64,000 nt of DNA, from contig JBMCHT010000001.1 in assembly GCA_048617235.1 (NCBI GenBank), forward strand, positions 54,043-118,042. The letters are read 5' to 3'. Each line of letters opens with the position of its first letter. Position 1 is the stretch's first letter. Below, in pieces: positions 4,333-57,806 of the stretch. The DNA is from Patescibacteria group bacterium (GTDB taxonomy: Bacteria; Patescibacteriota; Minisyncoccia; Phycocordibacterales; XYD1-FULL-46-19). The translations under genes and the position numbers were made by a program. The notes beneath the pieces were generated by a model. It had not been told where the DNA came from, did no database searches, and saw only the letters and a list, made by a program, of their open reading frames with translations.

Positions 4333-4361
4333 GTCGTTATTATATATTTTATCAAATAATA

Positions 4362-4367
4362 TGTCAA
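4362..4367 (-). promoter_or_regulatory. -35 box (TTGACA) of the candidate sRNA promoter; -10 TATAAT at 4339-4344
   Basis: Exact sigma70 consensus hexamers with 17-nt spacer, read on the minus strand. Confidence 0.5.
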
Positions 4368-4410
4368 TACCCATTTGCTAAAAAGATGAAAAAAAGTTAA
4401 TCTTATAGGT

Positions 4411-4983
4411 ATGAATTTAGGTCAAAAAATAGAAGCTTTGTTATTTTATAAGGCGGAACCACTTAAAAAAAATAAAATAATTGAATGGCTTCAAACAGAT
4501 TTTCAATCTCTAACAGAGGCTGTTTCAGAGCTAAAAGTACTTTTAAACAATCGGGGGTTGATTTTAATAGAAACAGATGACAGTTTGGCTTTGGGTACCA
4601 GGCCGGAATTAGCGGAACTATTAGCTGAAATAGATAAAAAAGAATTAGAGTCCAATTTGGGGCCTGCCGGTTTAGAAGTTTTGGCTATAGTTTTATACCA
4701 AGGACCGATTACCAGAGCCGGAATAGATTATATTCGAGGAGTTAATTCTAGCTCGACCTTGCGTCAACTAACTATGAGAGGCTTATTGGAGAAAAATAAA
4801 AATATTAATGGAGATAATAAAACTTTGGTTTATAAACCAACTATTGATTTATTAACTAAACTGGGAATTAGTAATTTGAATGATTTGCCGGATTACCAAA
4901 CCATTAAAACTAAGATGAATTCTTTTAAACAAGATGAAGGTGAAGATGAAACAAAAAACCAAACTTATGAAAAAGAAAATTAA
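4411..4983 (+). CDS. scpB: Segregation and condensation protein B
   Basis: 'LEVLAIVLYQGPITRAGIDYIRGV' winged-helix ScpB signature. Follows scpA. Confidence 0.85.
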   Translation: MNLGQKIEALLFYKAEPLKKNKIIEWLQTDFQSLTEAVSELKVLLNNRGLILIETDDSLALGTRPELAELLAEIDKKELESNLGPAGLEVLAIVLYQGPITRAGIDYIRGVNSSSTLRQLTMRGLLEKNKNINGDNKTLVYKPTIDLLTKLGISNLNDLPDYQTIKTKMNSFKQDEGEDETKNQTYEKEN

Positions 4984-5899: not shown

Positions 5900-5906
5900 T
5901 ATAATT

Positions 5907-6974: not shown

Positions 6975-6977
6975 AAT

Positions 6978-8084: not shown

Positions 8085-8086
8085 AT

Positions 8087-10535: not shown

Positions 10536-11829
10536 AAATATTTTAAAATTATTTTTTGTATTAACAATTACAATTTTAACTATTTCAAACAGTGAAGTTT
10601 TTATTGTTAAAGCAGAATCAGATGTTACCCAATTACGCCAACAAGTCGAAACGGGTAACCAAGAGATTAATCGACTGGAAAAAGAAATCGCCGAATACCA
10701 ACAACAATTAAATCAAATCGGCCAACAAACCAAATCTTTGGAAGGAGAATTAAACCGCTTCCGTTTAACCACTCAAAAATTAAACGCCGATATTGCCCTA
10801 ACAGAACAACAAATAGAAAATACTCGCTTAAATATAACCAATCTATCTAATGATATAGACTCCAGTGCCGAAAAAATAGAAATAAATAAATCCGGCCTAG
10901 CCTCATCTATTAGAGCTATTAATGAATATGATCGAATCAATTTATTAGGAGTTATTCTAAGCCAAGATTCTTTAGCAGATTTTTTACAAGATTTAAACGC
11001 CTTAACGGAAATCAATAATAAAATAAATAACTTATTAGCCGAACTTCGAGAAACTAAAACCAGCCTGGAGACTTCTAAGGTTAAAACCGAAAAAGAACAA
11101 GCTGAACTCTTGGCTTTACAACAAAAATTAGATGAACAAAAGAAGATAGCTCTGGCCAACCAAGAAGAAGCAGCTAAATTGTTGGAGGAAACCAAAAATG
11201 AAGAAGCTTCATATAATAAAATCTTAGCTCAAAGATTAGAGAAAAAAAGATTAATAGAAAGCGAAATAAGACAAGCCGAGGAAGCTATTCGAGTTCAGAT
11301 AGATCCCGCCTCCTTACCATCAACCGCTCCGGGAATCTTGCAATGGCCTCTGGCTAATATTCGAATCACTCAATACTTTGGCAATACTAATTTTGCCACT
11401 CAAAATCCTCAGATATACAAAGGAGCAGGCCATAACGGAATAGATTTAGCAGCCAGTGTTGGTACACCGATAAAATCAGTCTTAGCCGGACAAGTTATCG
11501 GAACAGGGGATACAGATATAACCTGTCGTGGAGCTTCTTATGGTCGCTGGATTCTAATTGAACATCCAAATGGTCTTTCTTCTCTCTACGCCCATTTATC
11601 TTTAATAAAAGTAAAAGAAGGACAATCTGTTTCCACCGGTCAAGAAATTGCTTACGGCGGCAATACCGGTTATACCACAGGCCCTCATCTTCATTTTTCA
11701 GTCTTTGCTTCCGCCGGAGTAGAAGTGGGATCCCTCCAAAGCCAAGTACCGGGTTGCGGTATTTATCGTTTACCCTTGGCTGCCAACAATAGCGTTCTTA
11801 ATCCTTTATCTTATTTGCCTTCTATTTAA
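10528..11829 (+). CDS. M23-family peptidoglycan endopeptidase with N-terminal coiled coil (EnvC-like)
   Basis: Signal/TM, long Q/E-rich coiled coil. C-terminal 'GHNGIDLAASVGTPIKSVLAGQV' and 'HLHFSV' M23 motifs. Confidence 0.8.
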   Translation: MNKNILKLFFVLTITILTISNSEVFIVKAESDVTQLRQQVETGNQEINRLEKEIAEYQQQLNQIGQQTKSLEGELNRFRLTTQKLNADIALTEQQIENTRLNITNLSNDIDSSAEKIEINKSGLASSIRAINEYDRINLLGVILSQDSLADFLQDLNALTEINNKINNLLAELRETKTSLETSKVKTEKEQAELLALQQKLDEQKKIALANQEEAAKLLEETKNEEASYNKILAQRLEKKRLIESEIRQAEEAIRVQIDPASLPSTAPGILQWPLANIRITQYFGNTNFATQNPQIYKGAGHNGIDLAASVGTPIKSVLAGQVIGTGDTDITCRGASYGRWILIEHPNGLSSLYAHLSLIKVKEGQSVSTGQEIAYGGNTGYTTGPHLHFSVFASAGVEVGSLQSQVPGCGIYRLPLAANNSVLNPLSYLPSI

Positions 11830-11865
11830 TTAATTTTATTCAGTTTTTATGTTAAAATAAAAAAA

Positions 11866-12162
11866 ATGAAGAATTCTAGCCAACAATCGGGATTTATTAA
11901 ATTAATTGTTATTATAGTAGTAATAGTTATCATTTTAAGTTGGATAGGTTTTGATTTACGTCAATTAATGGAATCTGAGTTGGTAAAAAATAATTTTCAA
12001 TATTTAAAAGAGGTTTTATTGGTAATCTGGGAGTTTTTAGTCAATATTTGGAATAAATTTTTAGCCGAACCGACTATTTGGATTTGGGATAATATCATTA
12101 TTGATCTCTTTTGGCACAATATTAAACCAATACCAGAAATGCTAAATAACAATAATTCTTAA
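11866..12162 (+). CDS. Small membrane protein, hypothetical
   Basis: Single hydrophobic helix 'FIKLIVIIVVIVIILSWIGF'. No known domain. Confidence 0.35.
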   Translation: MKNSSQQSGFIKLIVIIVVIVIILSWIGFDLRQLMESELVKNNFQYLKEVLLVIWEFLVNIWNKFLAEPTIWIWDNIIIDLFWHNIKPIPEMLNNNNS

Positions 12163-12459
12163 AATATACAAAATATGGCTTAAAATAAGCATATTTTAGC
12201 TTAGGTTTATCCACAAGAAGACCCTTTACTGTTGACTTTTTAAATTCTCTGTGCTAACATAGACGACGTAGAGCAGAGTAGTCATACCTGCTCTTTTTAA
12301 GTGGAGTAATACATCAGCGCTTTAAAAATTGTTTAACATAATAATTTTTAATCAAGCGTTACGACGCGTATTATAAAAACTTTACAAATAGGCTTAGTTA
12401 GCCTTATAGCTTTTACCGGAATTAATCCGGCAGCTGTCGATGAGAATAAACAATTCAAT

Positions 12460-12879
12460 TTGGTAGCTGTTGAGACTGAACCGGTAGAAAGCCTTGAAGA
12501 TGATCAGTCTTTGAATTCCGATTCAAAGCCGACCGCAGAGTCGGACGCTGAACAACTTCAAGAATTAATCGTTGAATACAGTTTAAAGAATAATATAGAT
12601 CCTAACTTACCACTGGCTATCGCTTTTTGTGAAAGCTCTTACAGGCATTGGCAAGATGAGGATCAAAATAAAGTCCTTAGAGGTCAAACCAATTCCAATG
12701 ATGTTGGTTTATTCCAAATAAATGAACATTATCATTTAGATAAAAGTCGCGAATTAGGCTACGATATATATACCTTAGAAGGTAATATAGAATATGCTAT
12801 GTGGCTTTTAAAAACAGACGGGGATAACGCTTGGCATTGGAGTCAGAAGTGTTGGAGCCCGAAGCTAGCTCAAAAGTAA
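12460..12879 (+). CDS. Lytic transglycosylase (SLT/lysozyme-like domain) protein. True start probably upstream (~12371) with a non-canonical initiator.
   Basis: 'AIAFCESS' (catalytic Glu-Ser) and 'GLFQINEHYH' resemble SLT 'ES...GLMQI'. The open in-frame upstream stretch encodes a signal-peptide-like 'IIKTLQIGLVSLIAFTGINPAAV'. Confidence 0.6.
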   Translation: MVAVETEPVESLEDDQSLNSDSKPTAESDAEQLQELIVEYSLKNNIDPNLPLAIAFCESSYRHWQDEDQNKVLRGQTNSNDVGLFQINEHYHLDKSRELGYDIYTLEGNIEYAMWLLKTDGDNAWHWSQKCWSPKLAQK

Positions 12880-13186
12880 AATGAATTAGAAACAAGAACC
12901 ACTCAGATTAGATTAGACCTGAGTGGTTTTTGTTTGTTTTAATTTATTTGAATGGTTCGCAAAAGATATATTGTGCGAACCACTATTATCTTTATTCTAG
13001 CTATAAAAAACAACCCCCCTATGCATTTTTTAATTAAAATCTAATTTATCAATCAATTAAATTAAAAACTTTTAATAAAATAAAAAACATATTACACCTC
13101 TCCCCATTTAATCTCTTCCTTTCTTTAATATCTTTAATAAACTAATTTTATTGATTTAAATAAAAAATCTATCCACTCCACTCCCC

Positions 13187-13215
13187 TTGCCTAAAATCCA
13201 AATATTAGTCATAAT
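13187..13215 (+). promoter_or_regulatory. Sigma70-like promoter TTGCCT-N17-CATAAT
   Basis: Hexamers at 13187-13192 and 13210-13215 with 17-nt spacer. Drives the GC-rich element that follows. Confidence 0.4.
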
Positions 13216-13216
13216 A

Positions 13217-13500
13217 AAAATGGACTGTGCACCACAACTAAAAGGGAGGGAGGTGATTCTTATCGGCACCCAAACCACCACAAAGATGCCCGTTTTCAAA
13301 ATCTCGGAACACCGAGATGAAAACGGCTTCTTCAGCGTCAAACCGGTAAAGGCAACCCCGGTCGCCCCTACCAAAAACGGCAAAAAAGAGGAACCCGTCA
13401 AGCGGGATCCTCGCAACTAGCCTCACCCCCGGAGAAGCATATGATTATAGTCTCATACGGTGCACCCGAGACAAATCATGTCCTTCTCCGGGGCTTTTTT
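13217..13500 (+). other. GC-rich promoter-to-terminator unit, either a structured RNA or a small-protein mRNA (44-66 aa; ATG 13220, GTG 13253 or ATG 13286, stop 13420). Unclassified.
   Basis: ~55% GC in a ~35% GC background. 'AAAGGGAGGGAGG' purine tract. Long-range pairing GTGCACC/GGTGCAC. Terminal hairpin CCCCGGAGAAG...CTTCTCCGGGG plus T6 at 13427-13500. Confidence 0.35.
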
Positions 13501-13909
13501 ATTGTTGTAAACCGGGACAATTAAGAGCCGGGGTATACCCGGCCGCTTGAGCCTCGGCTTCAGATTGAAACCAAACCAAATTAGGTTCACTAATTTGTTT
13601 GGCTCCGGCACACCAAGGTAAATGGTAACGTTTCCCATTTCTAGAGGCAACCACTACACCGGCGGCTATCGAACCGGTTGGCAAATCAGGATGTTTAGTA
13701 AACATCTCCAAAGGTAGAGTTTCATAAGGGGGTAGAGGCCATTCTTCTACGGTTATAGGTGGTCGATTATCTATCAAATTCTGAATCCGCCCCAGACCAA
13801 AACCGATTACTCCGGTCAAAAAAACTATTAAAATAATAGCTAAATCCTTTTCATATTTAAACCAAGACTGCCTCTTGATTTTTTTCAGCCATTGAGTTAT
13901 ATTTATCAT
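13499..13909 (-). CDS. Membrane-anchored protein with C-terminal Ada-like zinc-binding (YHxxxC...C) domain
   Basis: N-terminal TM 'AIILIVFLTGVIGFGL'. C-terminus 'GKRYHLPWCAGAKQI...VWFQSEAEAQAAGYTPALNCPG' matches the Ada metal-binding-like fold pattern. Confidence 0.5.
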   Translation of the reverse strand: MINITQWLKKIKRQSWFKYEKDLAIILIVFLTGVIGFGLGRIQNLIDNRPPITVEEWPLPPYETLPLEMFTKHPDLPTGSIAAGVVVASRNGKRYHLPWCAGAKQISEPNLVWFQSEAEAQAAGYTPALNCPGLQQ

Positions 13910-13948
13910 TGTCTATCTGAATTAATTTAACTTATATTAACATAATTT

Positions 13949-14230
13949 ATGTCAACTAAAAAAGCCGGTGGATCGGCTAAAAACTTAAGAGATTCAAATC
14001 CTAAATATTTAGGTACTAAACTCTATGATGGCCAAGAAGCTAAGGCCGGATCTGTTATAGTCCGTCAACGAGGAACTAAAATTTTACCGGGAGAAAATGT
14101 CGGCCTGGGTAAAGATCATACAATTTTTTCTAAAATAACCGGTAAAGTGGTTTATAATACTGTTCGTAAAACCAAATTTAACGGTCAAACTAAAAGATAC
14201 AAGAAAGTCAGTGTAAAATCTGAAAAATAA
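13949..14230 (+). CDS. rpmA: 50S ribosomal protein L27
   Basis: '[54 protein letters not shown]' close to the L27 consensus. Confidence 0.9.
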
Positions 14231-14232
14231 AA

Positions 14233-14262
14233 AAACAACCGCTTCGGCGGTTGTTTTTCTAA
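14233..14262. terminator. Bidirectional intrinsic terminator between rpmA (+) and rplI (-)
   Basis: AAAAAACAACCGC-ttcg-GCGGTTGTTTTTC: perfect 9-bp stem, GNRA-like loop, A-run and T-run flanks. Confidence 0.65.
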
Positions 14263-14276
14263 ATAATAGTATTTTT

Positions 14277-14741
14277 TTATAAAGCTTCTATAGTTACTTT
14301 TATTTCAGGTTTATCTTTTTGATCCCCCATCACAACTGGTATTTTCACCTCCCCCACTTCCTTTATAGGTCGTTCTAAATCTATCCAATCCGGTTCCAAG
14401 TGAATATCAAATTGTTCCGCCAAAGCATTAGCTATATCCTCTTCTTTTAAGCCGGCAAACAAATGACCGGCTTCACTGGCAGCCACCTTTATAATTACAT
14501 TGACTTGATCTAATTTTTCTTTCAAATTTTCAACTGCAGCTAATTTTTTCTGTTTTTCTTCTATTAAAGACTGTCTTTGTTTTTCCGCCTCGGTTATTGT
14601 TCGATCATCCGCCAGTTGAGCCAAGTTCTTAGGTAATAACCAATTACGAACAAAACCCGGAGCTAATTTTTTAACTTCAAATTTACGCCCAACCTTAGGC
14701 ACATCTTTATTTAAAATAACGGTAGTTTTATGTCTGGACAT
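14277..14741 (-). CDS. rplI: 50S ribosomal protein L9
   Basis: N-terminal 'TVILNKDVPKVGRKFEVKKLAPGFVRNWLLPKNLA' L9 N-domain. Length 154 aa. Confidence 0.9.
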   Translation of the reverse strand: MSRHKTTVILNKDVPKVGRKFEVKKLAPGFVRNWLLPKNLAQLADDRTITEAEKQRQSLIEEKQKKLAAVENLKEKLDQVNVIIKVAASEAGHLFAGLKEEDIANALAEQFDIHLEPDWIDLERPIKEVGEVKIPVVMGDQKDKPEIKVTIEAL

Positions 14742-14795
14742 GATATATTAAAATTTTATTTACCCTTAGAGTTTAACTCAAATTGACTTATTTGT

Positions 14796-15953
14796 CTAGT
14801 TTCCCTTAAAATACTTTTTTCCTTTTAATTTAGCAGGTAATAAATCTTCAGTGGTATAAAGCTCATAATCCCGACCATAACCCATTTTTTTTAACAAAGC
14901 CGTAGTGGCATTCAAAATTATTTTAGGTGGACGTAAAGCTCCAAACCGGCGGCAATCAGCGGCCGCTTGATCATAGGCCTCCACCACTCGTCTATCTTTT
15001 TTAGCTTTGGCTAAATAAATAGCAGTTTGAGTTAGATTTATTTTAATTTCCGGATATCCAATAACCTCGCTTGCTTTAAAAGCGGTGCCGGCCACCAAAA
15101 AAGCAGCCGTTTGAGATAAACCAATATCTTCACTGGCAAAAATTAGCATTCTTCTGGCTATATATTTGGGATCCTCCCCTGCTTCCAACATTCGAGCCAG
15201 ATAATAGACTGCGGCATCCGGCTGACTGGCTCTTAAAGACTTAATAAAAGCACTAGATAAATTATAGTGTTCATCCCCGGCTTTATCATAAGATAAAGAC
15301 ACGGCAGTGGTATTTTCTAACCAATTATCTATTATAGATTTGTTTATCTCTCCCCCAGCGGCTAAAAAATTAAGTTCTTCTAACCAATTAATAAATCTTC
15401 GAGCATCACCGGTGGCCATTTCCGCCAGATAATTTAAAGCTTCCGGTTTAATTTTAATTTCGGCTTTTTGAGCTATTTTAAATAAATGTTCCTTTTCCAG
15501 AGGTTTAAGAAGCCAGACCGACAATCTGGATAATAAAGGTGGTATAATTTCAAAACTGGGATTTTCAGTAGTAGCTCCAATTAAAACTATTTGCCCGGAT
15601 TCCACATACGGTAATAAAAAATCTTGCTGGCTTTTACTGAAACGGTGGATTTCGTCTAAAAATAAAATATTGTTATTCTGATTGATTATTTTTTTGATAT
15701 CCGCTTTTCCGGACGAAACGGCAGATAATTCGGTTACCGGTTTGTTTAAACCACGAGCATATAATCTAGCTATAGAGGTTTTACCCGAACCCGGAGGCCC
15801 CCATAAAATAAAAGAAGTTAATCGACCTGATTCCACTAAACGCCTAATAGCCCCTTCCGACCCCAATAAATGATCTTGACCTATCACTTCATTTAAATCT
15901 ATCGGCCTTATTTTTTCAGCTAAAGGTTTAAAATCCATAAAGTAAATAATCAA
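14796..15953 (-). CDS. rarA: Replication-associated recombination protein A (AAA+ ATPase)
   Basis: Walker A 'GPPGSGKTS', Walker B 'LFLDEIHRF'. C-terminal MgsA-specific domain. Confidence 0.9.
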   Translation of the reverse strand: MIIYFMDFKPLAEKIRPIDLNEVIGQDHLLGSEGAIRRLVESGRLTSFILWGPPGSGKTSIARLYARGLNKPVTELSAVSSGKADIKKIINQNNNILFLDEIHRFSKSQQDFLLPYVESGQIVLIGATTENPSFEIIPPLLSRLSVWLLKPLEKEHLFKIAQKAEIKIKPEALNYLAEMATGDARRFINWLEELNFLAAGGEINKSIIDNWLENTTAVSLSYDKAGDEHYNLSSAFIKSLRASQPDAAVYYLARMLEAGEDPKYIARRMLIFASEDIGLSQTAAFLVAGTAFKASEVIGYPEIKINLTQTAIYLAKAKKDRRVVEAYDQAAADCRRFGALRPPKIILNATTALLKKMGYGRDYELYTTEDLLPAKLKGKKYFKGN

Positions 15954-16551
15954 TTAAGGGCGTAACAAAAACCTCCACTAAAGCAGCTCCTAAAACCCAT
16001 AAAGGTATTATTTTATAACCCCACCGATAAGCCTGTAGTAAATTCTGCTTAATAATTTCTTTTTCTTTTTTACCAAAAGACCAAAGTAAAACTATATGAC
16101 CTAAGTGAAAGCCCCAAGCAGCAGCCATAAAAAAGACCGTTAATTCTATAATTCCATGTGGCAATAATAAAATCAAAGTCCTCCCCCACCCCAAAGCAGC
16201 CAAACTTTCAAAACCAATCATGCCTAAAAGTAAACCATTAACCGTAACAAAAATAGCCGGTCCCAAACCAAAAAGTAATCCGGAGATTATTACTAACCAA
16301 ATTTTAATCAGATTATTTAAAAAAATAATAATAAAAATTGTCCAAGGGCTTAAATTTTTTAACCAAGCCATTGAGTTAAAAAACTCTCCAATCTCTTCAG
16401 AAACTGTTTCTTGATTCAAACTATAAATCAACCACCCCATAATAACTGAAAGAAAAAACAATATTGCAGTATAAATAAAAAACCACCAAACTGTTTTTGA
16501 TATTAAATGGCCACCTAAAAATTTACTCAACCGACTTTTAAAAAATTGCAT
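15928..16551 (-). CDS. SpoIIM/DUF95-like polytopic membrane protein
   Basis: 5-6 TM helices. 'GIIELTVFFMAAAWGFHLG' resembles the stage II sporulation protein M family. Confidence 0.45.
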   Translation of the reverse strand: MQFFKSRLSKFLGGHLISKTVWWFFIYTAILFFLSVIMGWLIYSLNQETVSEEIGEFFNSMAWLKNLSPWTIFIIIFLNNLIKIWLVIISGLLFGLGPAIFVTVNGLLLGMIGFESLAALGWGRTLILLLPHGIIELTVFFMAAAWGFHLGHIVLLWSFGKKEKEIIKQNLLQAYRWGYKIIPLWVLGAALVEVFVTPLIDYLLYGF

Positions 16552-16573
16552 TAACTAAAATTTTTCAGTTGTA

Positions 16574-17818
16574 TTAAAATTCATTCTGTAAATAATCTAT
16601 TGCTTTATCTAACACTGGATCTTTTTCAGCTTCAATGTCTTCTTGAGTTATCTCTACCTCTATATCCGGCGTCAGACCTTCTTTAGATAATATTTTTCCT
16701 TCCGGTGTCTTCCAATGAGCAATAGTCACCTTTAAAGCACTACCTCCGGATATAGGTAACAACTCTTGAACCGAACCTTTGGCAAAAGTTGGCTGGCCAA
16801 TCAAAGTAGCTATACCATGTTCAGCCAAAGCTCCGGCTAAAATCTCTGAAGCCGAGGCACTGCCTCTATCAATCAAAATCACCAGCGGTAAATCTGCTGA
16901 GAAAGTATTATATCCTCGACTACGATATTTTCTAATTGAACTTTCCTCTCCCCTGGTTTCTTGAACCACCACCTCTCCGGCCGGCAAAAACCAACTGGCA
17001 GTATCTATAGCCGCTTCCATATAACCTCCGGGATTACCTCGTAAGTCTATTATTAATTTGTCTGCATTAGACAAAACAAACTCTTGTAAAGCCTGACGGA
17101 ATATTTCAGGAGAAGAAGCGGAAAAATTATAAAATTTAATCAAAAATATTCCACCCTCCAATTCTTCTGTTTCTATAATCGGAATAGATATAATATCTCT
17201 TTCTATATCAAAATTTAACAAATCCGACTCCCCTTCCCTGGCTATTGTCAATTGAACAACAGTCCCTTTTTTTCCTCTGATTAATTTTACCCCCGAATCT
17301 ACAGACATATCTTCTGTAGATTCTCCATCTATTTCAATTATTTTATCTCCGGCTTGCAAACCGGCCTCTTGAGCCGGAGTATCAGATAAAGGAGAAATTA
17401 CTGTTAAGATACCATCCCGAATACCTACCTCCATTCCTACGCCGCCGAAATTACCGGAAATGTCTTCTTCAAAATGCTTTTTATCTGAAGGTGGCAAAAA
17501 AACCGAATAGGGATCACCTGTAGATCTAACCATACCTTGAATAGCCCCCCACAATCTTTCTTGTAAACGTTCTTTTTCTGTTTGATCTTTATCACCGTTT
17601 AAAACAGCCAAATTATCGTCCAAAGCCAGCCATACTTCCCAAAAAGGAGCCATGTCTACTTCCACCACTCTCCCGGCATTTAAATCAGTCCAATTGGCTA
17701 TTGCTTTAGATATCGGCTGATTCTCATAACCGGCATAAACTCCGGCCGAAAAAGCTACTAGCAAACTTAAAGCCATAATTACGGCTATAGATATTTTTCC
17801 TAAAAATGAATATTTCAT
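16574..17818 (-). CDS. ctpA: Carboxyl-terminal processing protease (peptidase S41) with PDZ domain
   Basis: PDZ 'GLQAGDKIIEIDGEST'. S41 motif 'LVILIDRGSASASEILAGAL'. N-terminal signal anchor. Confidence 0.85.
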   Translation of the reverse strand: MKYSFLGKISIAVIMALSLLVAFSAGVYAGYENQPISKAIANWTDLNAGRVVEVDMAPFWEVWLALDDNLAVLNGDKDQTEKERLQERLWGAIQGMVRSTGDPYSVFLPPSDKKHFEEDISGNFGGVGMEVGIRDGILTVISPLSDTPAQEAGLQAGDKIIEIDGESTEDMSVDSGVKLIRGKKGTVVQLTIAREGESDLLNFDIERDIISIPIIETEELEGGIFLIKFYNFSASSPEIFRQALQEFVLSNADKLIIDLRGNPGGYMEAAIDTASWFLPAGEVVVQETRGEESSIRKYRSRGYNTFSADLPLVILIDRGSASASEILAGALAEHGIATLIGQPTFAKGSVQELLPISGGSALKVTIAHWKTPEGKILSKEGLTPDIEVEITQEDIEAEKDPVLDKAIDYLQNEF

Positions 17819-17898
17819 AAGCCTATTATCACAAATTATAGTTTGTCGGTCAATCTAAAAAAAGTTATAATAGCCAATATTGGCTTAAATTAAAATAT

Positions 17899-18831
17899 AT
17901 GATAAAACAACTTCGTTATAAAAATATTACCTGGATTGATGCTACCGCCCCTTCTGTTGAAGAAATAGAAAAGCTAGCTGATCAATACAAAATTCACCCT
18001 TTCATTACCGGTGACTTAAAAACCCCCAGTCCCCGCTCTAAAATTAATTTATATAAAGAGACCATCCATTTGGTTTGCCATTTTCCGGCTATAGACTTTT
18101 TTTATAATCGAGAACCAAATAATAAACCAAGTAGTGATCATTCCTTAACCGAGATGGTTTTTATTATCAGTCAAGATTTTGTTATTTCTCTTCACCAAGA
18201 GCCCAGTCCTCCACTGGAAGAATTATCAAAAATATTTGAATCCGGCTTTAATGATTTGGGAGAAAATCCGAACGGTAGCCATCTATTATATTACCTTCTT
18301 CGACATTTGTATTTATCCCTAGGAAACGGCTTGGATTTGTTGGGCAATGAATTAAAAAAAACCAGTCATCAAGTTTTTGCCGGTCGCGAAAAAGAAATGG
18401 TTTTAGCCTTAGCTAATCTTAATCAACACTTAATGAACTTCCGCTGGGCTTTAAAAAATCATGAGGAATTATTACATTCTTTGAATTCAACCGGTTCCCA
18501 ACTTTTTGGAGAAGACTTTCATTATTATGGACAAAATCTAATCAGTGAATATAATCGAGTGTGGTACATGTTGGAAAATTATCGTGAAACTTTTCAAGAT
18601 GTTCAAAATACCAACAATTCCTTATTATCTATTAAAAATAACGAAACGGTAAAAATCTTAACCGTTTTAGCTTTTATTTTCTTACCTATCAGTTTAGTGG
18701 CTAACTTTTTTAGTTTTACCGTATCGACTCCACTGGAAAAATCCCCTTACGGTTTGGTTATAATTTTAATTATAGCCATTATTACCTTAATAACTACTTT
18801 ATCTATTGCTAAATATAAAAAATGGCTCTAA
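17899..18831 (+). CDS. CorA-like divalent cation transporter (divergent; GMN motif replaced)
   Basis: CorA-type cytoplasmic N-domain, two C-terminal TM helices. 'VANFFSF' where CorA has 'YGMNF'. Confidence 0.6.
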   Translation: MIKQLRYKNITWIDATAPSVEEIEKLADQYKIHPFITGDLKTPSPRSKINLYKETIHLVCHFPAIDFFYNREPNNKPSSDHSLTEMVFIISQDFVISLHQEPSPPLEELSKIFESGFNDLGENPNGSHLLYYLLRHLYLSLGNGLDLLGNELKKTSHQVFAGREKEMVLALANLNQHLMNFRWALKNHEELLHSLNSTGSQLFGEDFHYYGQNLISEYNRVWYMLENYRETFQDVQNTNNSLLSIKNNETVKILTVLAFIFLPISLVANFFSFTVSTPLEKSPYGLVIILIIAIITLITTLSIAKYKKWL

Positions 18832-20201
18832 CACTTTACCATTCTATTGATAAAGAAAAAAAACCTTTGGAGAATAAAAAGGGGGTTATAAAAATATATT
18901 CTTGTGGCCCAACTGTTTATGATTCTCCTCATATTGGTAATCTCCGCTCAATGATTTCCACCGATTTATTAAACCGAGCCTTAAATTTTTTAAATTATAA
19001 AACTGAAACCGTTATAAATATAACCGATATCGACGATAAAACCATAAAAGGCAGTCAAGAAAAAAAACAATCCTTAAAAGAATTCACTCAAATTTACACT
19101 GATAAATTCTTCTCAGATTTAGCCAAACTTAATATTAAATTACCTGAACATACACCCAAAGCCACGGATTTTATACCTCAAATGATAGAAATGATAGAAA
19201 CTTTGATCGAAAAAGATTTTGCCTATAAAACAACAGATGGTATTTATTTTTCTATAGATAAATTCCCTGACTATGGTCATTTAATCGGGGTTCAAAAAAA
19301 AGATCAAGATAAAAATATTTCACGCTTAAAAATAGACAATTACGACAAAGAAAAAATAGCAGATTTCGCTCTTTGGAAATTTTATACCCCCAAAGACGGT
19401 CAGGTTAAATGGGAAGCTCCTTTCGGTGCCGGCCGACCGGGTTGGCACATAGAATGTTCAGCCATGGCTATTAATATTCTAGGGCCGACTATAGACATTC
19501 ATACCGGTGGTTCGGATTTAATGTTTCCTCACCACAGCAATGAGATTGCCCAATCGGAAAGTTACACCGGTCAAACTTTTGTTCGCCACTGGCTTCACTT
19601 TGGCATGATAAAAATAAATAATGAAAAAATGTCCAAATCTTTAAATAATTTTTTGGTTTTAGATGACTTACTCAAAGACAATATCCCTCCTTTGGCTTTT
19701 CGTTATTTAACCTTGGGAACTCATTACCGTTCATTATTAAATTTTACCGATCAAGCCATAAAAAATGCCCATCAAGCCTTAAACAATTTAGCTAAAAACC
19801 TTTTTGATCTAAAACAACAGACAAGCACCACGGGCACCGTTAATGAAGAAGCAGCAGAAGCATTTAAACAAACTTTAGAAAATGATCTTAATTTGCCACA
19901 GGCTTTATCTGTTGTTTGGCAAACCTTAAATAATAATTCAATTCAAGCAAGTGATCGTTTAATTACTATTTATTATTTCGATAAAGTTTTGGGTCTTAAT
20001 TTGGAAGCAATTATAAATAAAGCCAATCAACCCCCATCTGAGATAACCAAATTACATCTAGACAGATTAACCGCCCGCCAACAAAAAGACTGGCCTCTGG
20101 CAGATAAACTCAGAGCTGAAATTGAAGAAGCCAATTGGACTATTAGGGATATTTCTTCGAATAACAGCTATTTACTCCCTATAGACTTTTACCAACAGTA
20201 A
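18822..20201 (+). CDS. cysS: Cysteinyl-tRNA synthetase
   Basis: 'IYSCGPTVYDSPHIGNLRS' HIGH region, 'KMSKSLNN' KMSKS. Confidence 0.9.
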   Translation: MALTLYHSIDKEKKPLENKKGVIKIYSCGPTVYDSPHIGNLRSMISTDLLNRALNFLNYKTETVINITDIDDKTIKGSQEKKQSLKEFTQIYTDKFFSDLAKLNIKLPEHTPKATDFIPQMIEMIETLIEKDFAYKTTDGIYFSIDKFPDYGHLIGVQKKDQDKNISRLKIDNYDKEKIADFALWKFYTPKDGQVKWEAPFGAGRPGWHIECSAMAINILGPTIDIHTGGSDLMFPHHSNEIAQSESYTGQTFVRHWLHFGMIKINNEKMSKSLNNFLVLDDLLKDNIPPLAFRYLTLGTHYRSLLNFTDQAIKNAHQALNNLAKNLFDLKQQTSTTGTVNEEAAEAFKQTLENDLNLPQALSVVWQTLNNNSIQASDRLITIYYFDKVLGLNLEAIINKANQPPSEITKLHLDRLTARQQKDWPLADKLRAEIEEANWTIRDISSNNSYLLPIDFYQQ

Positions 20202-24284: not shown

Positions 24285-24432
24285 AATATTGAATTAAAGT
24301 TTTAATAATAATTTAAATTATAACATTTTTAATTTATATTCCTATGTTTTGAATAGAAAATATAAAAATAACACCCCGAGAAAGTTTCGTCTCCCGAGGT
24401 GCTCATCCTCTCCCCCACACCCCTCATATCTC

Positions 24433-24597
24433 TTAATTTTTGTTAAGAGACATAAGGGTACACGTTAATGAAACTCCCGCCATCACCCCCGCCCGCCAGA
24501 AATTGGGCGAGTCTAGGGCAGTGGCATCGAATATGGCTAGCATCAAGCTGATGCCAGCCATAAACGCCCAGCCGGTTTTTGTGAATTTAATACCCAT
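24433..24597 (-). CDS. Small (54 aa) hydrophobic protein encoded in a GC-rich islet. Alternatively a structured RNA.
   Basis: Strong RBS 'GGAATGGAGGAAAAG' 5 nt before ATG (24597). Product MGIKFTKTGWAFMAGISLMLAIFDATALDSPNFWRAGVMAGVSLTCTLMSLNKN. Two downstream hairpins, the second (CACCTCGGGA...TCTCGGGGTG plus TTATTTTT, ~24380-24420) an intrinsic terminator. Confidence 0.4.
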   Translation of the reverse strand: MGIKFTKTGWAFMAGISLMLAIFDATALDSPNFWRAGVMAGVSLTCTLMSLNKN

Positions 24598-24711
24598 CTT
24601 TTCCTCCATTCCTCTGTCTTATAGAGGGGTTAAAGTTTCAAAATCTACCGATAACTATAGCATATATTATTAAAAAAGTAAAGGTATTTTTAAATCAATT
24701 TTATTAAAAAA

Positions 24712-50392: not shown

Positions 50393-50473
50393 GTTATACC
50401 ATTATAAATGGAGAGAAAGTTATAGGAAGACTTTCTCAAGAAGGAAAGAAAAAGGAAGGAAGGAAGGGAAAAT

Positions 50474-50815
50474 ATGTCCGTAGTAGCCTCACACCCGCCG
50501 GCCGTTGAGCCGGCAAACGATCAAGTGGTACTGGAAGTCTCGGACTTCGCCTCGGGAAACCAGGTTGCCCGAAACCTCAAACTGGGCAACCGGTACGGGC
50601 GTCCGATGACTCAAGACGAGGTTCTGGAACAGAGCCTCGACCTCCTACAGGAGGGCGTCGCCATCCTCTGCCCGGGCCCCGGGCAGAAAAACTGCATCAT
50701 GATCTATACCGACGGTCGCGGCAACATTGTGGCCACGATCATTGAAGAGACGACCAGTTTCCCGGCCGGGGACTTCAAGGTCGCCTACATGGTGGCCGTC
50801 CCCAATAATTTCTAA
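50474..50815 (+). CDS. High-GC (~60%) small protein of unknown function. Likely foreign origin or an unusual constraint.
   Basis: 113-codon ORF after a 60-nt polypurine leader ending 'AAGGAAGGAAGGAAGGGAAAAT-ATG'. GC3-rich codon usage unlike neighbours. Followed by a terminator hairpin. Confidence 0.5.
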   Translation: MSVVASHPPAVEPANDQVVLEVSDFASGNQVARNLKLGNRYGRPMTQDEVLEQSLDLLQEGVAILCPGPGQKNCIMIYTDGRGNIVATIIEETTSFPAGDFKVAYMVAVPNNF

Positions 50816-50833
50816 CCCCCCTTCCCACAACCA

Positions 50834-50867
50834 CCCCGCGCCAAACTTGGTGCGGGGTTCTCTTATA
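50834..50867. terminator. Intrinsic terminator shared by the high-GC ORF (+) and uppP (-)
   Basis: CCCCGCGCC-aaacttg-GGTGCGGGG (9 bp with one G.U), followed by TTCTCTT. Confidence 0.5.
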
Positions 50868-53387: not shown

Positions 53388-54322
53388 AAACGACCGGCCG
53401 CACAGGCATTATAACGATTAAGAGTTTGATTATAAGAAGCTACGGTAGCAGCCGCAGCTCTAAATCTGTTTTCATATAGATCAATTAACTCCCTAGTTTG
53501 GTCAAAATCTTGTTTATTTTTAGATTCTTCTATTTGATTACTTAAATCATTCAAAATAGACTTATGATCATCTAAAATTGTCAAAATAGAATGATCCGGT
53601 GCCGGACAATCTCTTTTTTTAATACCATAGATAATTATTACTATATACTTATCACCATAAGGACTAATAGCTATCCCTGCTTCTTTATAACCTGAACCGG
53701 CTCCGGAATGAGATCGAGCCGCTTTATCCAATAATTCAGCCAAAAAAGCCGAAGATACAGGATCAGTTATGGCTATTTGTTCAGCTAAACCGGCATAATC
53801 ATAGCCGGTTAAATTTATAGCCTCTTTTATTTGATTTTCATTAAATAATAATGGTTTCCCTTCTATAATAGCTTGAACTCGCCGAGTAGCTACAAAATTT
53901 AAATTATCATTTAAACTTAAACTAAATAATCCCCTTGCTTGTCGTTTTTGATTTAAATAAGTAAAAACCAAACTTACTTCTGGTTTTACATCTTCGTTTA
54001 TTTCTTTTTCCTCATCAGTTAGCAAATCATTTTTTTCTACCTCAACCTCTGGGGCGGAATAATTCACAGAAGGAACTGAAGATATAATTTTATCTGAAGG
54101 TGATCCTAATTGCGGTAAATTAGCCGGAGACCAATTATTAATATCTGTTATTGATTGTCTATCTATAATCGGAGTGGGATTTATAATTTCTTCCTCTTCA
54201 ACTATAATTTCTTCAACATCATTACTTCTTTCCACCCCCAAAAACCAGACCGTTAACCAACCGCTAACCAAAACTATAGCCATAATCAATAAAACTTTAA
54301 TTAAAATGGAAAATTCTTTCAT
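53384..54322 (-). CDS. Secreted/membrane-anchored hypothetical protein (possible CAP/SCP-like C-domain)
   Basis: N-terminal TM, acidic linker. C-terminal region with weak CAP-like pattern. Low confidence. Confidence 0.35.
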   Translation of the reverse strand: MKEFSILIKVLLIMAIVLVSGWLTVWFLGVERSNDVEEIIVEEEEIINPTPIIDRQSITDINNWSPANLPQLGSPSDKIISSVPSVNYSAPEVEVEKNDLLTDEEKEINEDVKPEVSLVFTYLNQKRQARGLFSLSLNDNLNFVATRRVQAIIEGKPLLFNENQIKEAINLTGYDYAGLAEQIAITDPVSSAFLAELLDKAARSHSGAGSGYKEAGIAISPYGDKYIVIIIYGIKKRDCPAPDHSILTILDDHKSILNDLSNQIEESKNKQDFDQTRELIDLYENRFRAAAATVASYNQTLNRYNACAAGRL

Positions 54323-55035
54323 AAAAATTTATTAGAAATAACAGTTCCTTTAAATTCCAAATTATTTAAATAATTATCTAATCGTTCTAAATGTTGACCA
54401 TTAATAATAATCACTTCCATATTTTCAGCTTGAGCCAATCTGGAAGCTTCCGGATCAAAAGGAGTAGATAATCCCGGATTCCAATCTTTGGGTATTAATT
54501 GTAAAAAATTAACCCAAGATATTTTGTCGTAAAATTCAGCTTCAATATTTTTTTGAGGATCTTCCTCATAAACATAATCTATATTAGATAAATTGATTAT
54601 TCTATCTGACCCTAAAGTTTTAGCTAAAGACACAGCACAATAATCAGTACTACGACCCGGTCGCCAACCGGCAGCCACCAATAAAGATTCCTCAAAAACA
54701 GGAAGAGCGGTTGGATTTTTAACCATCACCGGATGAGCTTCTTGATAAAAAATAGAGCGTAAAAGATGTCCATTCAAACGAGTCCCATGAATACCCAACC
54801 AATCCAAATCCTCAACCGATAAATCGGTTACCGCTTGACCGGCTTTTTGGTAACGCCTGGCAGTTTGACCACCACCGGTTATAAGCACAAATCGTCGACC
54901 TTTACTTATTTGTTCCAATAAAATATTTTTAAAAATTTTAAGAAAAGAAATATCAATATTATCAGGTACTATCAAAGACCCTCCGACTGATATAATAATT
55001 GGTTTTTCTTTTTTCATCATTAAAGAGTTTAGCAA
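54319..55035 (-). CDS. pyrH: Archaeal-type UMP kinase (amino-acid-kinase fold)
   Basis: 'IISVGGSL', 'ITGGGQTARRY', 'LGIHGTRLNGHLL', 'AGWRPGRSTDYCAVSLA...IDYVYEEDP' collinear with archaeal PyrH. Confidence 0.7.
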   Translation of the reverse strand: MLNSLMMKKEKPIIISVGGSLIVPDNIDISFLKIFKNILLEQISKGRRFVLITGGGQTARRYQKAGQAVTDLSVEDLDWLGIHGTRLNGHLLRSIFYQEAHPVMVKNPTALPVFEESLLVAAGWRPGRSTDYCAVSLAKTLGSDRIINLSNIDYVYEEDPQKNIEAEFYDKISWVNFLQLIPKDWNPGLSTPFDPEASRLAQAENMEVIIINGQHLERLDNYLNNLEFKGTVISNKFL

Positions 55036-55069
55036 TAAAACTAAGATTAGCCAACATAAATTAAATATC

Positions 55070-55097
55070 TTGACTTTAACAATATTATATTTATACT
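55070..55097 (+). promoter_or_regulatory. Sigma70-like promoter TTGACT-N16-TATACT
   Basis: Hexamers at 55070-55075 and 55092-55097, immediately upstream of the structured RNA. Confidence 0.4.
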
Positions 55098-55103
55098 ACA
55101 TTA

Positions 55104-55322
55104 TAGATGGGAGAAGGTGGCCGATCTAAGGCAAAAACCAACACACAATTCAGTAAAAAAACGCCTTGGTATTAACCACCTTCTCCCCTTCCTTCTGCCT
55201 TTTAAAGATAAAGCGGGGTCGAGACGACCCAAATCCCACAAACAGCTGTGAGGCCTGTTTGATGAAAGATTAGCCGTTCTCGGCTCCGCCCCCAACCCCC
55301 GAATAACTCGGGGGTTTATTTA
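55104..55322 (+). ncRNA. Candidate ~215-nt structured RNA (unclassified), promoter-to-terminator unit with no downstream same-strand gene
   Basis: 12-bp perfect closing helix GGGAGAAGGTGG(55109-55120)/CCACCTTCTCCC(55176-55187). Hairpins GGGTCG-aga-CGACCC and CAAACAG-N9-CTGTTTG. Terminator CCCCCGA-ataac-TCGGGGG plus TTTATTT. Confidence 0.45.
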
Positions 55323-55326
55323 TAAA

Positions 55327-55752
55327 TTATTCTTCAGTTAGTTGAGTTACCGTTCCCACCTGATCAGCCGGAGTTAGACCTAATTCAAATACCACCCACT
55401 GCCAGGCTGAAAGATTATTTAATAAATTTTCCCGAAAATTATTAAAATTTATATTTTGACTTTCTCCTTCCACTAAAATAGTTATTTGAGGATCTTTAAC
55501 TAAAATTAAATCTTTAATACCTGCAAGATCTTCATTATTACCAACCCCTCCTTCTAAATAATCCACCGGATCAACCACTAAATGCCATTCACTTTCAGAT
55601 TCATAAATATCTCGAATAAAAACAGTCTCGTAATCAACAATAGCTTGATTAACTTGATTACCATTCTGCCACCACAGCCAACCAGTTACAGCTAAAATTA
55701 ACAATAAACCACCAACTATATATTTTATTTTAAAATTTTCTCTTTGTCTCAT
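55327..55752 (-). CDS. Hypothetical membrane-anchored protein
   Basis: N-terminal TM 'YIVGGLLLILAVTGWLWW'. No known domain. Confidence 0.4.
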   Translation of the reverse strand: MRQRENFKIKYIVGGLLLILAVTGWLWWQNGNQVNQAIVDYETVFIRDIYESESEWHLVVDPVDYLEGGVGNNEDLAGIKDLILVKDPQITILVEGESQNINFNNFRENLLNNLSAWQWVVFELGLTPADQVGTVTQLTEE

Positions 55753-55836
55753 AATCTTTATTTTAACATTTTATATTTTTTTAACCAATTAAAAAACCCG
55801 GGGCTATCTCTTTTGCGAAATTACCCCGGGTGTGTT

Positions 55837-56265
55837 TTAGCGAGTCAAAATTTTGTCCACGCAGGGAACAAGGTGAGGCAATTGAAGACAGATTGTATTC
55901 CGCAACTCAAATACCTCACCGGGGGTAGAAGTGTGTTTAAAAGCGCCTTGCAAGCAAAGCTTAATCATCACCTCGGCCAATCCCTGTAGTGACTGACTCT
56001 CAAAAATAAGACTATCAATCAGCTTAATAATCTTTATCAAGTCAGCCGGTTCTTTGGCCTGAAGTCGAGCTTGGCACAAGGCCCTTAAAGCCAAGAGGCC
56101 GTCAATCCGACTGAAGGCCCGGCCAACCTCCAACCACTGCCAACACGCCAGATCCTCAATCAAAAGACCTTGAAAAAAGCGCTGGGCTTTCTCCCTAGTT
56201 TTCGATTGAGAATTTTGATTGACATACTGATTAAAAAGCTTCAGCATCTGATTCAAATCAGCCAT
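55837..56265 (-). CDS. Hypothetical alpha-helical protein (142 aa), second gene of a GC-richer two-gene operon. Start at ATG 56265, not the longer ORF-track call.
   Basis: Strong RBS 'AGAGGAGGA' 6 nt upstream. Start 1 nt after the zinc-ribbon gene's stop. Downstream hairpin plus T6 terminator (~55795-55830). Confidence 0.5.
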   Translation of the reverse strand: MADLNQMLKLFNQYVNQNSQSKTREKAQRFFQGLLIEDLACWQWLEVGRAFSRIDGLLALRALCQARLQAKEPADLIKIIKLIDSLIFESQSLQGLAEVMIKLCLQGAFKHTSTPGEVFELRNTICLQLPHLVPCVDKILTR

Positions 56266-56266
56266 C

Positions 56267-56443
56267 TTAAGTCCTCCTCTTTTTGCCCTCCAAACATTTC
56301 GGACACAAGTACCGACGCTGTCCCCGCTTATCCTTTTTGACAACCAAAGCAAAGGCCTGAACCCTGTTCGACCAGCGACCGGATTGGCCACAAATATCAC
56401 AAACCTGATTGTCCGGCAAAGAATAATAGACAGATACCTTCAT
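56267..56443 (-). CDS. Small zinc-ribbon protein (58 aa, CxxC-N27-CxxC)
   Basis: 'MKVSVYYSLPDNQVCDICGQSGRW...RYLCPKCLEG'. RBS 'AGGAAGAAG' 7 nt before ATG 56443. The ORF-track TTG extension is unlikely. Confidence 0.5.
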   Translation of the reverse strand: MKVSVYYSLPDNQVCDICGQSGRWSNRVQAFALVVKKDKRGQRRYLCPKCLEGKKRRT

Positions 56444-56552
56444 TTTCTTCTTCCTTCTGTTAAAGACCCGAGTTTCTATTACAGCAAACAAGAAAAGTTA
56501 TTAAAAAGCAAGCCCTTGCCTCTTTGGGTAATATCGGGCAAAATATTAAGAT

Positions 56553-57806
56553 ATGAAACAAAACTGGTTTGAAAAATTTTATCAGCGTCATTTTGAAGAT
56601 TGGAGTAATATATCCGGATCCGAATTATTGAATTTTATTTTACCTAAAGCCGAAACTATCATTACTGAAAAAGAATTAACAGAAAAATTAAACTCCGGCA
56701 AAAAATTAAAAATTAAATTCGGCATTGATCCCACTGGAGCTCAAATACATTTAGGTCATGTAGTACCCATTATGCTTTTGCGCCAATTTTTAAGAGCCGG
56801 ACATGATATAGATTTTATTATAGGAGATTTTACCGCTCGTATCGGAGATCCGGCCGGTCGTACTACTGAAAGAGTACCTTTAACCTCAAATCAAATAGAT
56901 GACAATCAAAAAAATTACGAACAACAAATAGCTCGTTTTATAGATTTGGATAAAATCAGAGTCCATCGTAATTCTTCTTGGCTAACGCAAGTTTCTTTGG
57001 AAGATTTAATCAGTATTTTACAAACTGTTAGTGCTAAAGAGGCTCTCCAAAGAGATGACTTTCGTCAACGCCTGAAAAAAAATGAAGGTTTATCTTTAGC
57101 TGAGATAATTTATGGTGTTTTAATGGGTTTAGACTCTCTGGAGCTTAAAAACGATATCGAGGTCGGTGGAATTGATCAATTACTTAATTTTCAACAATGT
57201 CGAGAAGTAATGGCCGCTACCGGCCTAGAAAAAGAAACAGTCATTACCACTCCTTTAATAGAAGGTTTAGCCGGGGATGGTCAAAAAATGAGTAAAAGTT
57301 TAGATAATCATATCCCCTTAGAAGCCCCGGCAGATGAAAAATTCGGCTTAATTATGTCTGCCCCCGATAATTTAATTACTCAATATACTCGAAGCTGGGC
57401 AGATATTAATCAAGAAGAATTAACGGATTGGAATAATTTCATTTTAAGTGATCCCCTGGAAGCCAAAAAGCAATTAGCTAGTTATTTAGTAGCCATAGAA
57501 GCTAAAAATCCTGAGGCCGGCGTAACCGCTAGAGAAAATTTTGAAAGAAAATTCAGTCAAAAAGTTTTAAAAGAAGAAGATTACATTACCATTAAAACCG
57601 GAGACGGTACGACTATCTTCTCAGCTTTAGCCAATAGTGATCAATTTTCCAGCAACAACCAACTTCGACGACTTTTCCAAGAAACTGCTATTCGTCTTAT
57701 AACCGAAAATAATGAAGAAGAAATTTTAGAACCGGATTTTGTTATAACTAAAAATATTAATCTGCGAGCCGGTAAAACTCTTTTCTTGAAAATAAAAATT
57801 GATTAA
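56553..57806 (+). CDS. tyrS: Tyrosyl-tRNA synthetase
   Basis: 'GIDPTGAQIHLGHVVPI' HIGH region, 'IGDFTARIGDPAGRTTER', 'KMSKSLDN'. ~417 aa. Confidence 0.85.
   Translation: MKQNWFEKFYQRHFEDWSNISGSELLNFILPKAETIITEKELTEKLNSGKKLKIKFGIDPTGAQIHLGHVVPIMLLRQFLRAGHDIDFIIGDFTARIGDPAGRTTERVPLTSNQIDDNQKNYEQQIARFIDLDKIRVHRNSSWLTQVSLEDLISILQTVSAKEALQRDDFRQRLKKNEGLSLAEIIYGVLMGLDSLELKNDIEVGGIDQLLNFQQCREVMAATGLEKETVITTPLIEGLAGDGQKMSKSLDNHIPLEAPADEKFGLIMSAPDNLITQYTRSWADINQEELTDWNNFILSDPLEAKKQLASYLVAIEAKNPEAGVTARENFERKFSQKVLKEEDYITIKTGDGTTIFSALANSDQFSSNNQLRRLFQETAIRLITENNEEEILEPDFVITKNINLRAGKTLFLKIKID

Follow-up and report, generated by a model that had tools for sequence, protein, structure and literature searches.

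The element described here is a candidate small RNA (sRNA) gene in a 64,000-nucleotide (nt) stretch of genomic DNA, referred to below as the window, from a lone metagenome-assembled genome (MAG) of the Patescibacteria (NCBI locus tags ACOCU8_...; Logan run SRR11308339). The sRNA locus spans positions 55070–55325 on the plus strand and would encode an RNA of ~215 nt; its sequence is identical in an independent Logan assembly of SRR11308339. With a GC content of 49%, compared to 35% for the 64-kb window, the segment counts among the intergenic GC islands, of which the 64 kb contains only five. The genes on both sides lie on the minus strand. One of them, pyrH, encodes an archaeal-type UMP kinase; the other (55327–55752) encodes a protein of 141 residues, is convergent with the sRNA gene and abuts the sRNA terminator with its stop codon. 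The next plus-strand gene in the 3′ direction encodes a class I TyrRS/TrpRS-type synthetase and starts at 56553, ~1.2 kb away, in agreement with an initial annotation of this DNA that had noted no same-strand gene over 1.2 kb; according to the open reading frame (ORF) map, two minus-strand genes separate it from the sRNA terminator. Protein searches returned no homologs at all for the 141-residue neighbor and for a second neighboring protein of 142 residues, both of which we refer to as orphans, and the closest relative of the UMP kinase among 5.8 billion proteins is at most ~61% identical. Judged by sequence, the host lineage is phylogenetically isolated.

The sRNA locus is made up of the following features:

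55070–55097, plus strand: sigma-70-type promoter TTGACT-N16-TATACT, 10/12 consensus matches
55109–55187, plus strand: hairpin 1, present in the minimum free energy (MFE) and centroid structures, with a pairing probability of ~1 for the basal helix
55188–55212, plus strand: single-stranded linker CUUCCUUCUGCCUUUUAAAGAUAAA, 25 nt, with an unpaired probability of 0.78 for its CU-rich part
55213–55289, plus strand: hairpin 2, 77 nt, irregular, −34.0 kcal/mol, pair probabilities >0.9
55294–55325, plus strand: intrinsic terminator AACCCCCGA-AUAAC-UCGGGGGUU with a U-rich tail, from a scan and from the sequence

The promoter, which the initial annotation had already recognized, consists of TTGACT (55070–55075), a 16-nt spacer and TATACT (55092–55097), and is among three sites that score 10/12 in a consensus scan of positions 54000–57000. 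Based on promoter spacing, transcription is predicted to start at ~55104–55105. At the other end, the terminator stem (55294–55316) comprises 9 base pairs (bp), six of them G-C, and precedes UAUUUAU; it heads the list of terminator-like sites in the 3-kb scan of the same region. Read on the minus strand, the stem has only UU after it. The GC-rich structured segment is framed exactly by promoter and terminator, which share the plus strand, and no gene follows, so that by its sequence signals the segment has the make-up of an independent transcription unit, as a gene for a trans-acting sRNA would.

A 226-nt stretch covering the segment folds with an MFE of −86.9 kcal/mol (z = −7.7, 200 dinucleotide shuffles). 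A second shuffle set gave z = −5.9 for the sRNA, as compared to a mean of −0.6 (standard deviation 1.5) for 69 random 218-nt windows of the same genome. In both the MFE and the centroid structure, the RNA folds into two separate hairpins, a single-stranded linker and the terminator, while the 5′ and 3′ ends are not paired with each other. The 12-bp closing helix that had been noted before starts ~11 nt beyond the promoter and is indeed perfect, pairing GGGAGAAGGUGG (55109–55120) with CCACCUUCUCCC (55176–55187) at the base of hairpin 1. It is followed by a 2 × 2-nt internal loop (CC 55121–55122/AA 55174–55175), a 10-bp inner helix that includes two G-U pairs and a single bulge (55123–55132/55163–55173) and a 30-nt, A-rich terminal loop (55133–55162). 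Hairpin 2 has a basal helix of 12 bp, including two G-U pairs, between GCGGGGUCGAGA and UCUCGGCUCCGC, and a GUGA tetraloop at 55248–55251. For this region, the initial annotation had listed three further hairpins ahead of a strong terminator. The terminator stands; the three hairpins give way to the single 77-nt hairpin (−34.0 compared to −26.1 kcal/mol for three local hairpins), and are an alternative fold of 55213–55289, possibly a co-transcriptional one.

The CU-rich part of the linker, CUUCCUUCUGCC (55188–55199), has a mean unpaired probability of 0.78 in the partition function, and thus offers the accessible stretch that is expected of a trans-acting sRNA; we propose a putative seed that would span 55186–55203. 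In its CU-rich part (CCCCUUCCUUCUGCCUUU), the linker resembles the anti-Shine-Dalgarno (anti-SD) tail of 16S rRNA. A single-stranded, anti-SD-like stretch at this place had been suggested before, and its accessibility as well as its complementarity to SD-like leaders (see below) agree with that suggestion. The pyrimidine motif CCUUCU[C/G]CC is present in two copies: the 3′ arm of hairpin 1 carries CCUUCUCCC, and the linker carries CCUUCUGCC. This 3′ arm likewise reads like a mimic of the 16S 3′ tail. The purine arm GGGAGAAGG could pair with either copy (8/9 bp in the case of the linker), which makes hairpin 1 look like an sRNA-target duplex formed within one molecule.

Shine-Dalgarno-led genes as predicted targets, and a candidate sibling RNA

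Shine-Dalgarno (SD) sequences are scarce in the window. The upstream regions of 49 window genes are AT-rich, and an SD is found in 6/54 genes. SD-like leaders precede 4/5 genes with a GC content of at least 0.45, as opposed to only 2/50 of the genes below this value. A strong −10 box ends 4–12 nt before the ATG in 14/54 genes, compared to 8% of random positions, with a peak at 6–7 nt. Such spacing is typical of leaderless mRNAs and suggests that leaderless translation is widespread in this genome. The SD-led exceptions, at 50474, 56443, 56265 and 24596, are small orphan genes of 45–59% GC with exaggerated purine leaders, and a gene at ~13250 probably belongs with them. The last two loci each carry a terminator of their own. 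At 24423–24620 on the minus strand, a GC-rich gene with a purine-rich SD leader encodes a putative membrane protein of 57 residues, and at 13225–13500 on the plus strand, a GC-rich ORF of ~44 residues follows a purine-rich SD leader.

Among the 65 translation initiation regions of the window, SD-led leaders rank 1–4 as predicted partners of the sRNA. The predicted targets are:

50438–50476, plus strand: purine-tract leader (AAGAAGGAAAGAAAAAGGAAGGAAGGAAGGGAAAAU-AUG), −26.9 kcal/mol, rank 1 of 65
56272–56298, minus strand: SD-type leader (AAAAAGAGGAGGA), −22.8 kcal/mol
56445–56468, minus strand: purine leader (AGAAGGAAGAAGAAA-AUG), −22.2 kcal/mol

The first leader belongs to the gene at 50474–50815 (plus strand), a 113-residue orphan ORF of 59–60% GC with a terminator on its 3′ side, the whole locus covering 50400–50860. 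The encoded protein has no Pfam or PHROG match, and no homolog was found among 1.8 billion representative proteins. Its leader is a 35-nt purine tract with three consecutive GGAA repeats and is the only place where GAAGGAAGG occurs on a sense strand. In the predicted duplex, residues 55186–55203 of the sRNA pair with 50450–50468 over 11 + 6 bp and stop 5 nt short of the AUG. When the query is shuffled at matched composition, only 0.7% of trials reach −26.9 kcal/mol, a figure that applies to low-complexity sequences and covers the 64 kb.

The other two leaders belong to neighbors of the sRNA gene. AAAAAGAGGAGGA precedes the gene for the 142-residue orphan (56265→55837), ~0.5 kb from the sRNA gene, and AGAAGGAAGAAGAAA precedes a gene for a 58-residue zinc-ribbon orphan (56443→56267). 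Together they form a GC-rich (45–48%) two-gene cassette at 55795–56470 on the minus strand, in which the 58-residue gene comes first and the 142-residue gene second, with a terminator of its own. An ORF of 187 residues with a GTG start has also been called in the cassette region; its 5′ end probably extends too far, and NCBI has the 142-residue form. When the CU-rich linker was run against 12,792 windows covering the 64 kb, the three best non-self duplexes were formed with the leaders at 56265, 56443 and 50474.

A second candidate of this kind lies elsewhere in the window:

4215–4367, minus strand: sibling small-RNA candidate, on the grounds of promoter, terminator, fold z-score and shared motifs

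This sibling is located in an intergenic GC-rich island between scpA and scpB. Its promoter, TTGACA-N17-TATAAT (4367→4339), matches the consensus at 12/12 positions and is the best in 1–20000, and its terminator, which abuts a convergent gene, is the top-listed one in the same range. In the RNA of ~120 nt (4333→4215), an unpaired CCUUCCUUCCCUC at the 5′ end would be followed by a hairpin of 17 bp, ACCACCUACUCCCC and a terminator of 13 bp. The fold has a z-score of −6.6 and the motif an unpaired probability of 0.97; there is no Rfam match. Thus, the two RNAs have in common a GC-rich island, a consensus promoter, a strong terminator, an unpaired CCUUCCUUC and the ACCACCUNCUCCCC motif. Besides CCUUCCUUC, they share AACCACCU[U/A]CUCCCC, which agrees in 14/15 bases, a score reached by 0.6% of shuffles. 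Both strands together (128 kb) contain only four instances of the 9-mer CCUUCCUUC: one per RNA, and two in complementary form in the 50474 leader. This leader is first of 65 for both RNAs, with −26.9 kcal/mol for the main sRNA and −22.4 kcal/mol for the sibling. On the other hand, the sibling is shorter and carries its seed at the 5′ end instead of in an internal linker, and beyond the two motifs there is no alignable similarity and no shared structure.

Searches for known families and homologs

We compared the sRNA with known RNA families using cmscan against Rfam 15, covering the whole window at gathering thresholds and the 501-nt sRNA region at E<=10. The only match in the whole window was a tRNA-Glu, and the sRNA region yielded only miRNA-type noise, with a best score of 25 bits against a model threshold of 99. 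A confident Rfam match, which the initial annotation had named among the findings that would refute its proposal, is thus absent from the region, and its failure to recognize a 6S, signal recognition particle (SRP), tmRNA or RNase P RNA or an obvious riboswitch leader is borne out even at E<=10.

Individual candidates were rejected on further grounds. For 6S RNA, there is no model match at E<=10 and the fold shows two separate hairpins, not a rod with a central bubble. SRP and RNase P RNAs are without a match at this threshold, and neither domain IV nor P4/CR motifs were seen on reading the sequence. tmRNA and Y RNA likewise gave no match at E<=10, and ARAGORN also found no tmRNA. T-box and riboswitch leaders, like 6S RNA, resemble the sRNA in size, strong structure and terminator, and the next plus-strand gene does encode an aminoacyl-tRNA synthetase. 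However, there is no T-box match at E<=10, the 1.2-kb gap contains two opposite-strand genes, and reading the sequence revealed no T-box sequence or specifier-loop architecture. A riboswitch leader has neither a model match nor a suitable position, given the opposite-strand genes before the synthetase gene, and a riboswitch-type terminator/antiterminator switch would have to rely on a 5-bp alternative pairing, seen by eye and unsupported. PyrR or other pyrimidine leaders gave no match at E<=10. Finally, ORFs of 22, 44 and 64 residues inside the region have no protein-family match.

Homologs of the sRNA were sought in several collections. Searches with blastn and nhmmer of 27 pyrH loci from GTDB species of other Patescibacteria returned no similar RNA, and these loci have no conserved or comparably long spacer upstream of pyrH. 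Viral contigs contained nothing for the 3′ arm of hairpin 1 plus tail, and phage records only chance 27-nt matches. Within the window, the sRNA is single-copy by self-BLAST. A metagenome scan with the two helix arms retrieved at least 120 loci; among the matches listed, there was no homolog of the sRNA, and 113/119 represented one dispersed nested-palindrome repeat family, GC-rich (~60%), from soil bacteria, which has no Rfam entry.

The soil repeat has the arms GGGAGAAGGTGG/CCACCTTCTCCC around a GGATGAGGG...CCCTCATCC core. Its layout is CCCTTCTCCCCTTGT-GGGAGAAGGTGG-...GGATGAGGGG...CCCCTCATCC...-CCACCTTCTCCC-ACAAGGGGAGAAGG, and some contigs (L029–L148) carry more than one copy. It has in common with the sRNA an identical 12-bp arm and a similar arm spacing (50–78 nt), and in 8/119 copies among the matches listed also the next four bases, CCGA. 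Nevertheless, the sRNA does not belong to the repeat family: the core, carried by 113/119 of the copies listed, is absent from the sRNA, the repeat is multicopy and dispersed and is flanked by further CCTTCTCCC/GGGAGAAGG palindromes, while the sRNA has an AT-rich interior, an A-rich loop and only a single copy in the window. We regard the shared arm as an unexplained coincidence of what appears to be low-complexity sequence.

A tentative reading and its rivals

As a tentative reading, to which we assign somewhat less than an even chance, we suggest that the locus is a stand-alone plus-strand gene for a ~215-nt trans-acting, base-pairing sRNA with an anti-SD-like seed. The earlier interpretation of the segment as a free-standing structured RNA is thus partly supported and, with the same reserve, extended to a probable orphan sRNA. 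We infer transcription, strand, targets and regulatory outcome alike, from one sequence plus circumstantial evidence within its genome.

According to this proposal, transcription would run from a few bases before the stable 5′ hairpin to the strong intrinsic terminator. Hairpin 1 would start 4–5 nt from the predicted transcription start; 5′ hairpins near the start typically protect an RNA against 5′-end-dependent decay. The exposed CU-rich linker would serve as the seed and pair with the purine-rich ribosome-binding leaders of the few SD-led genes, the best partner being the 50474 gene, followed by the two-gene cassette (56443→55837), and this pairing might block initiation or trigger decay. 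The second, near-identical copy of the motif would be masked by the SD-like purine arm, with which it pairs in the basal helix of hairpin 1; a layout with two motif copies, as in RsaE/RoxS, would result. From hairpin 2 and the terminator, the RNA may gain stability or perhaps a protein-binding surface.

The analogy to RsaE/RoxS can be examined point by point. These Firmicutes sRNAs carry C-rich motifs in duplicate, with which they bind SD regions and so prevent initiation, and the mechanism does not need Hfq (PMC6158497; see also PMC5419742). The candidate shares with them a stand-alone gene with its own promoter and terminator, and duplicated pyrimidine motifs that are predicted, in its case, to pair with purine-rich SD regions. 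It differs in that there is no sequence or covariance-model similarity, with no RsaE match at E<=10, and in being about twice as long, with two hairpins of 77–82 nt. Moreover, its motif is CU-rich (CCUUCUCCC/CCUUCCUUC), as opposed to the C-rich motifs of RsaE and RoxS (PMC6158497), and a perfect 12-bp helix hides one of the two motif copies. The host also belongs to another phylum, and most window genes lack an SD. The sRNA would belong to a known functional kind, the SD-targeting sRNAs, though not to a known family, and that it works like RsaE/RoxS without being homologous to them is plausible but unproven.

Patescibacteria have minimal genomes and, as far as is known, generally lack the known sRNA chaperones. 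To our knowledge, regulatory RNAs are essentially uncharacterized in Patescibacteria (also known as CPR), and a full-text literature search on CPR sRNA work returned nothing relevant. If the proposal holds, the sRNA and its sibling would be the first example of SD-targeting sRNAs in this group, and would link the near-absence of SD sequences, the leaderless-type promoters and the scattered GC-rich orphan genes with their exaggerated purine leaders. A bolder version, which we consider improbable in its entirety, would count the two RNAs among a small set of anti-SD-mimic sRNAs that selectively intercept the few SD-led mRNAs and act as a gate or silencer for atypical genes, with the basal helix of hairpin 1, an SD:anti-SD-like duplex within the molecule, as a decoy that releases the second seed copy when needed. 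The GC-rich orphan genes are possibly foreign, and we know of no description from Patescibacteria of such control over atypical genes at the level of translation. At present, with one uncorroborated sequence from a lone MAG, the practical value is modest; finding a transcript or a relative would change this.

Several observations weigh against an SD-targeting sRNA. Pyrimidine-purine complementarity is of low complexity, so that any CU-rich sequence favors SD-like leaders, and the best target energy of the sibling is not significant, as 10% of shuffles reach −22.4 kcal/mol. Hairpin 2 and the A-rich loop carry no assigned role. Promoter-like hexamers are common in this AT-rich DNA and as such not enriched (11 found, 8.3 expected), and one of the 69 random background windows equals the sRNA in its z-score (−5.96), so that the sRNA ties with the background extreme. 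The minus strand folds equally well (−87.7 compared to −84.5 kcal/mol for the plus strand); folding energy is thus uninformative with respect to strand, and the strand call rests on the promoter, the terminator framing and the G-U pairs. No homolog was found in the collections searched, and hence neither conservation nor covariation supports the helices or the seed. Lastly, the sharing of an arm with an unrelated, abundant soil repeat shows that such sequences recur without shared function.

Among the alternatives, the one that survives best, though unlikely, is that the segment is non-functional, a decaying remnant of GC-rich, probably foreign DNA that by chance can fold beside promoter-like AT-rich sequence. 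Such an origin would be in keeping with the other GC-rich islands with orphan content at 13.2, 24.4, 50.4 and 55.8–56.4 kb, with a minus strand that reads like the purine-rich leaders of the GC-rich cassettes, with the lack of homologs, with the 12-mer arm that equals that of the GC-rich soil repeat and with the frequency of promoter-like sites. However, promoter and strand-specific terminator frame the structure precisely, the z-score lies at the extreme of the background, and decaying sequence would hardly be expected to contain two 12-bp helices, one of them perfect. In addition, the sibling repeats the architecture and the motifs with a 12/12 consensus promoter, and the minus-strand ORF after the purine tract has only 9 codons and is no ORF remnant.

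It is distinctly unlikely that the gene specifies a structured RNA that does not act by base pairing but serves a protein-binding or housekeeping function, such as a very divergent 6S-like or other ribonucleoprotein RNA, the CU-rich stretch being incidental. Two large, stable hairpins and a 30-nt A-rich loop do exceed what a seed-type sRNA needs, and the target prediction is only moderately significant. Rfam models also appear to be blind to this lineage, as a third structured RNA nearby (L150 15468–15688; see below) is equally unmatched; the silence of Rfam therefore means little here. Nonetheless, even at E<=10 the RNA has no similarity to 6S, SRP, RNase P, tmRNA or Y RNA, its fold is not a 6S-like rod, ARAGORN found no tmRNA, and no SRP or RNase P motifs were recognized on reading. 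Furthermore, the sibling has only the CU-rich motifs in common with the sRNA and not the structure.

That the minus strand is the functional one, as an intercistronic or 5′-untranslated structure that, transcribed together with the 141-residue gene, would control or process pyrH mRNA, seems to us improbable. With both flanking genes on the minus strand, read-through transcription is likely, and the minus fold (−87.7 kcal/mol) is as good as the plus fold. Yet the minus strand offers no promoter or terminator logic, with only UU after the stem; on this strand, the G-U pairs of the plus-strand helices turn into A-C mismatches and extra bulges arise, and the plus strand has the cleaner inner helices. 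None of the 27 other pyrH loci has a comparable spacer or a similar sequence, and no PyrR or pyrimidine leader was matched. pyrH also appears, as read from the sequence, to have its own promoter (TTGGCT-N17-TAAACT), which ends 5 nt before the ATG; this arrangement fits the leaderless pattern of the genome, and pyrH would therefore not need the sRNA spacer as a leader.

Finally, a leaderless mRNA for a 22-residue peptide (MGEGGRSKAKTNTQFSKKTPWY, ATG 55107 to TAA 55175), or a dual-function RNA, is very improbable: the ATG lies 9 nt after TATACT and the ORF exactly inside hairpin 1, in a genome where 14/54 genes have a −10 box 4–12 nt before the ATG (8% at random), but this spacing is beyond the 6–7-nt peak of real genes, the ATG runs into the 12-bp G-C-rich helix, the ORFs have no family match, ~150 nt of further structure would have no coding role, and there is no downstream gene to attenuate.

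Further elements around the window

Apart from the sRNA and its sibling, a third promoter-flanked (TTGACT-N17-TATATT), GC-rich structured RNA of ~200 nt was noticed on the minus strand at L150 15468–15688, corresponding to about window coordinates 68183–68403, ~4 kb past the end of the window. Its fold (z = −4.7) comprises a multibranch interior closed by a helix of 17 bp; a terminator is also present, and there is no Rfam match even at E<=10. The background window with z = −5.96 may mark yet another structured element.

A group I intron (RF00028, 108 bits) is present outside the window at L150 18350–18594 on the minus strand, inserted in the anticodon loop of a tRNA. The anticodon of the split tRNA looks like GUA, which would make it a tRNA-Tyr.

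Two further loci are unusual for a Patescibacteria genome of 35% GC. A gene with a DAPDH_C domain (L150 12314–13392) is located inside a GC island that peaks at ~62% GC. At L149 225–3234, ~1–4 kb upstream of the window start, an autoinducer-synthase-like gene (PF00765) lies beside genes for an acyltransferase and a histidine kinase, the latter ending ~0.3 kb before the window.

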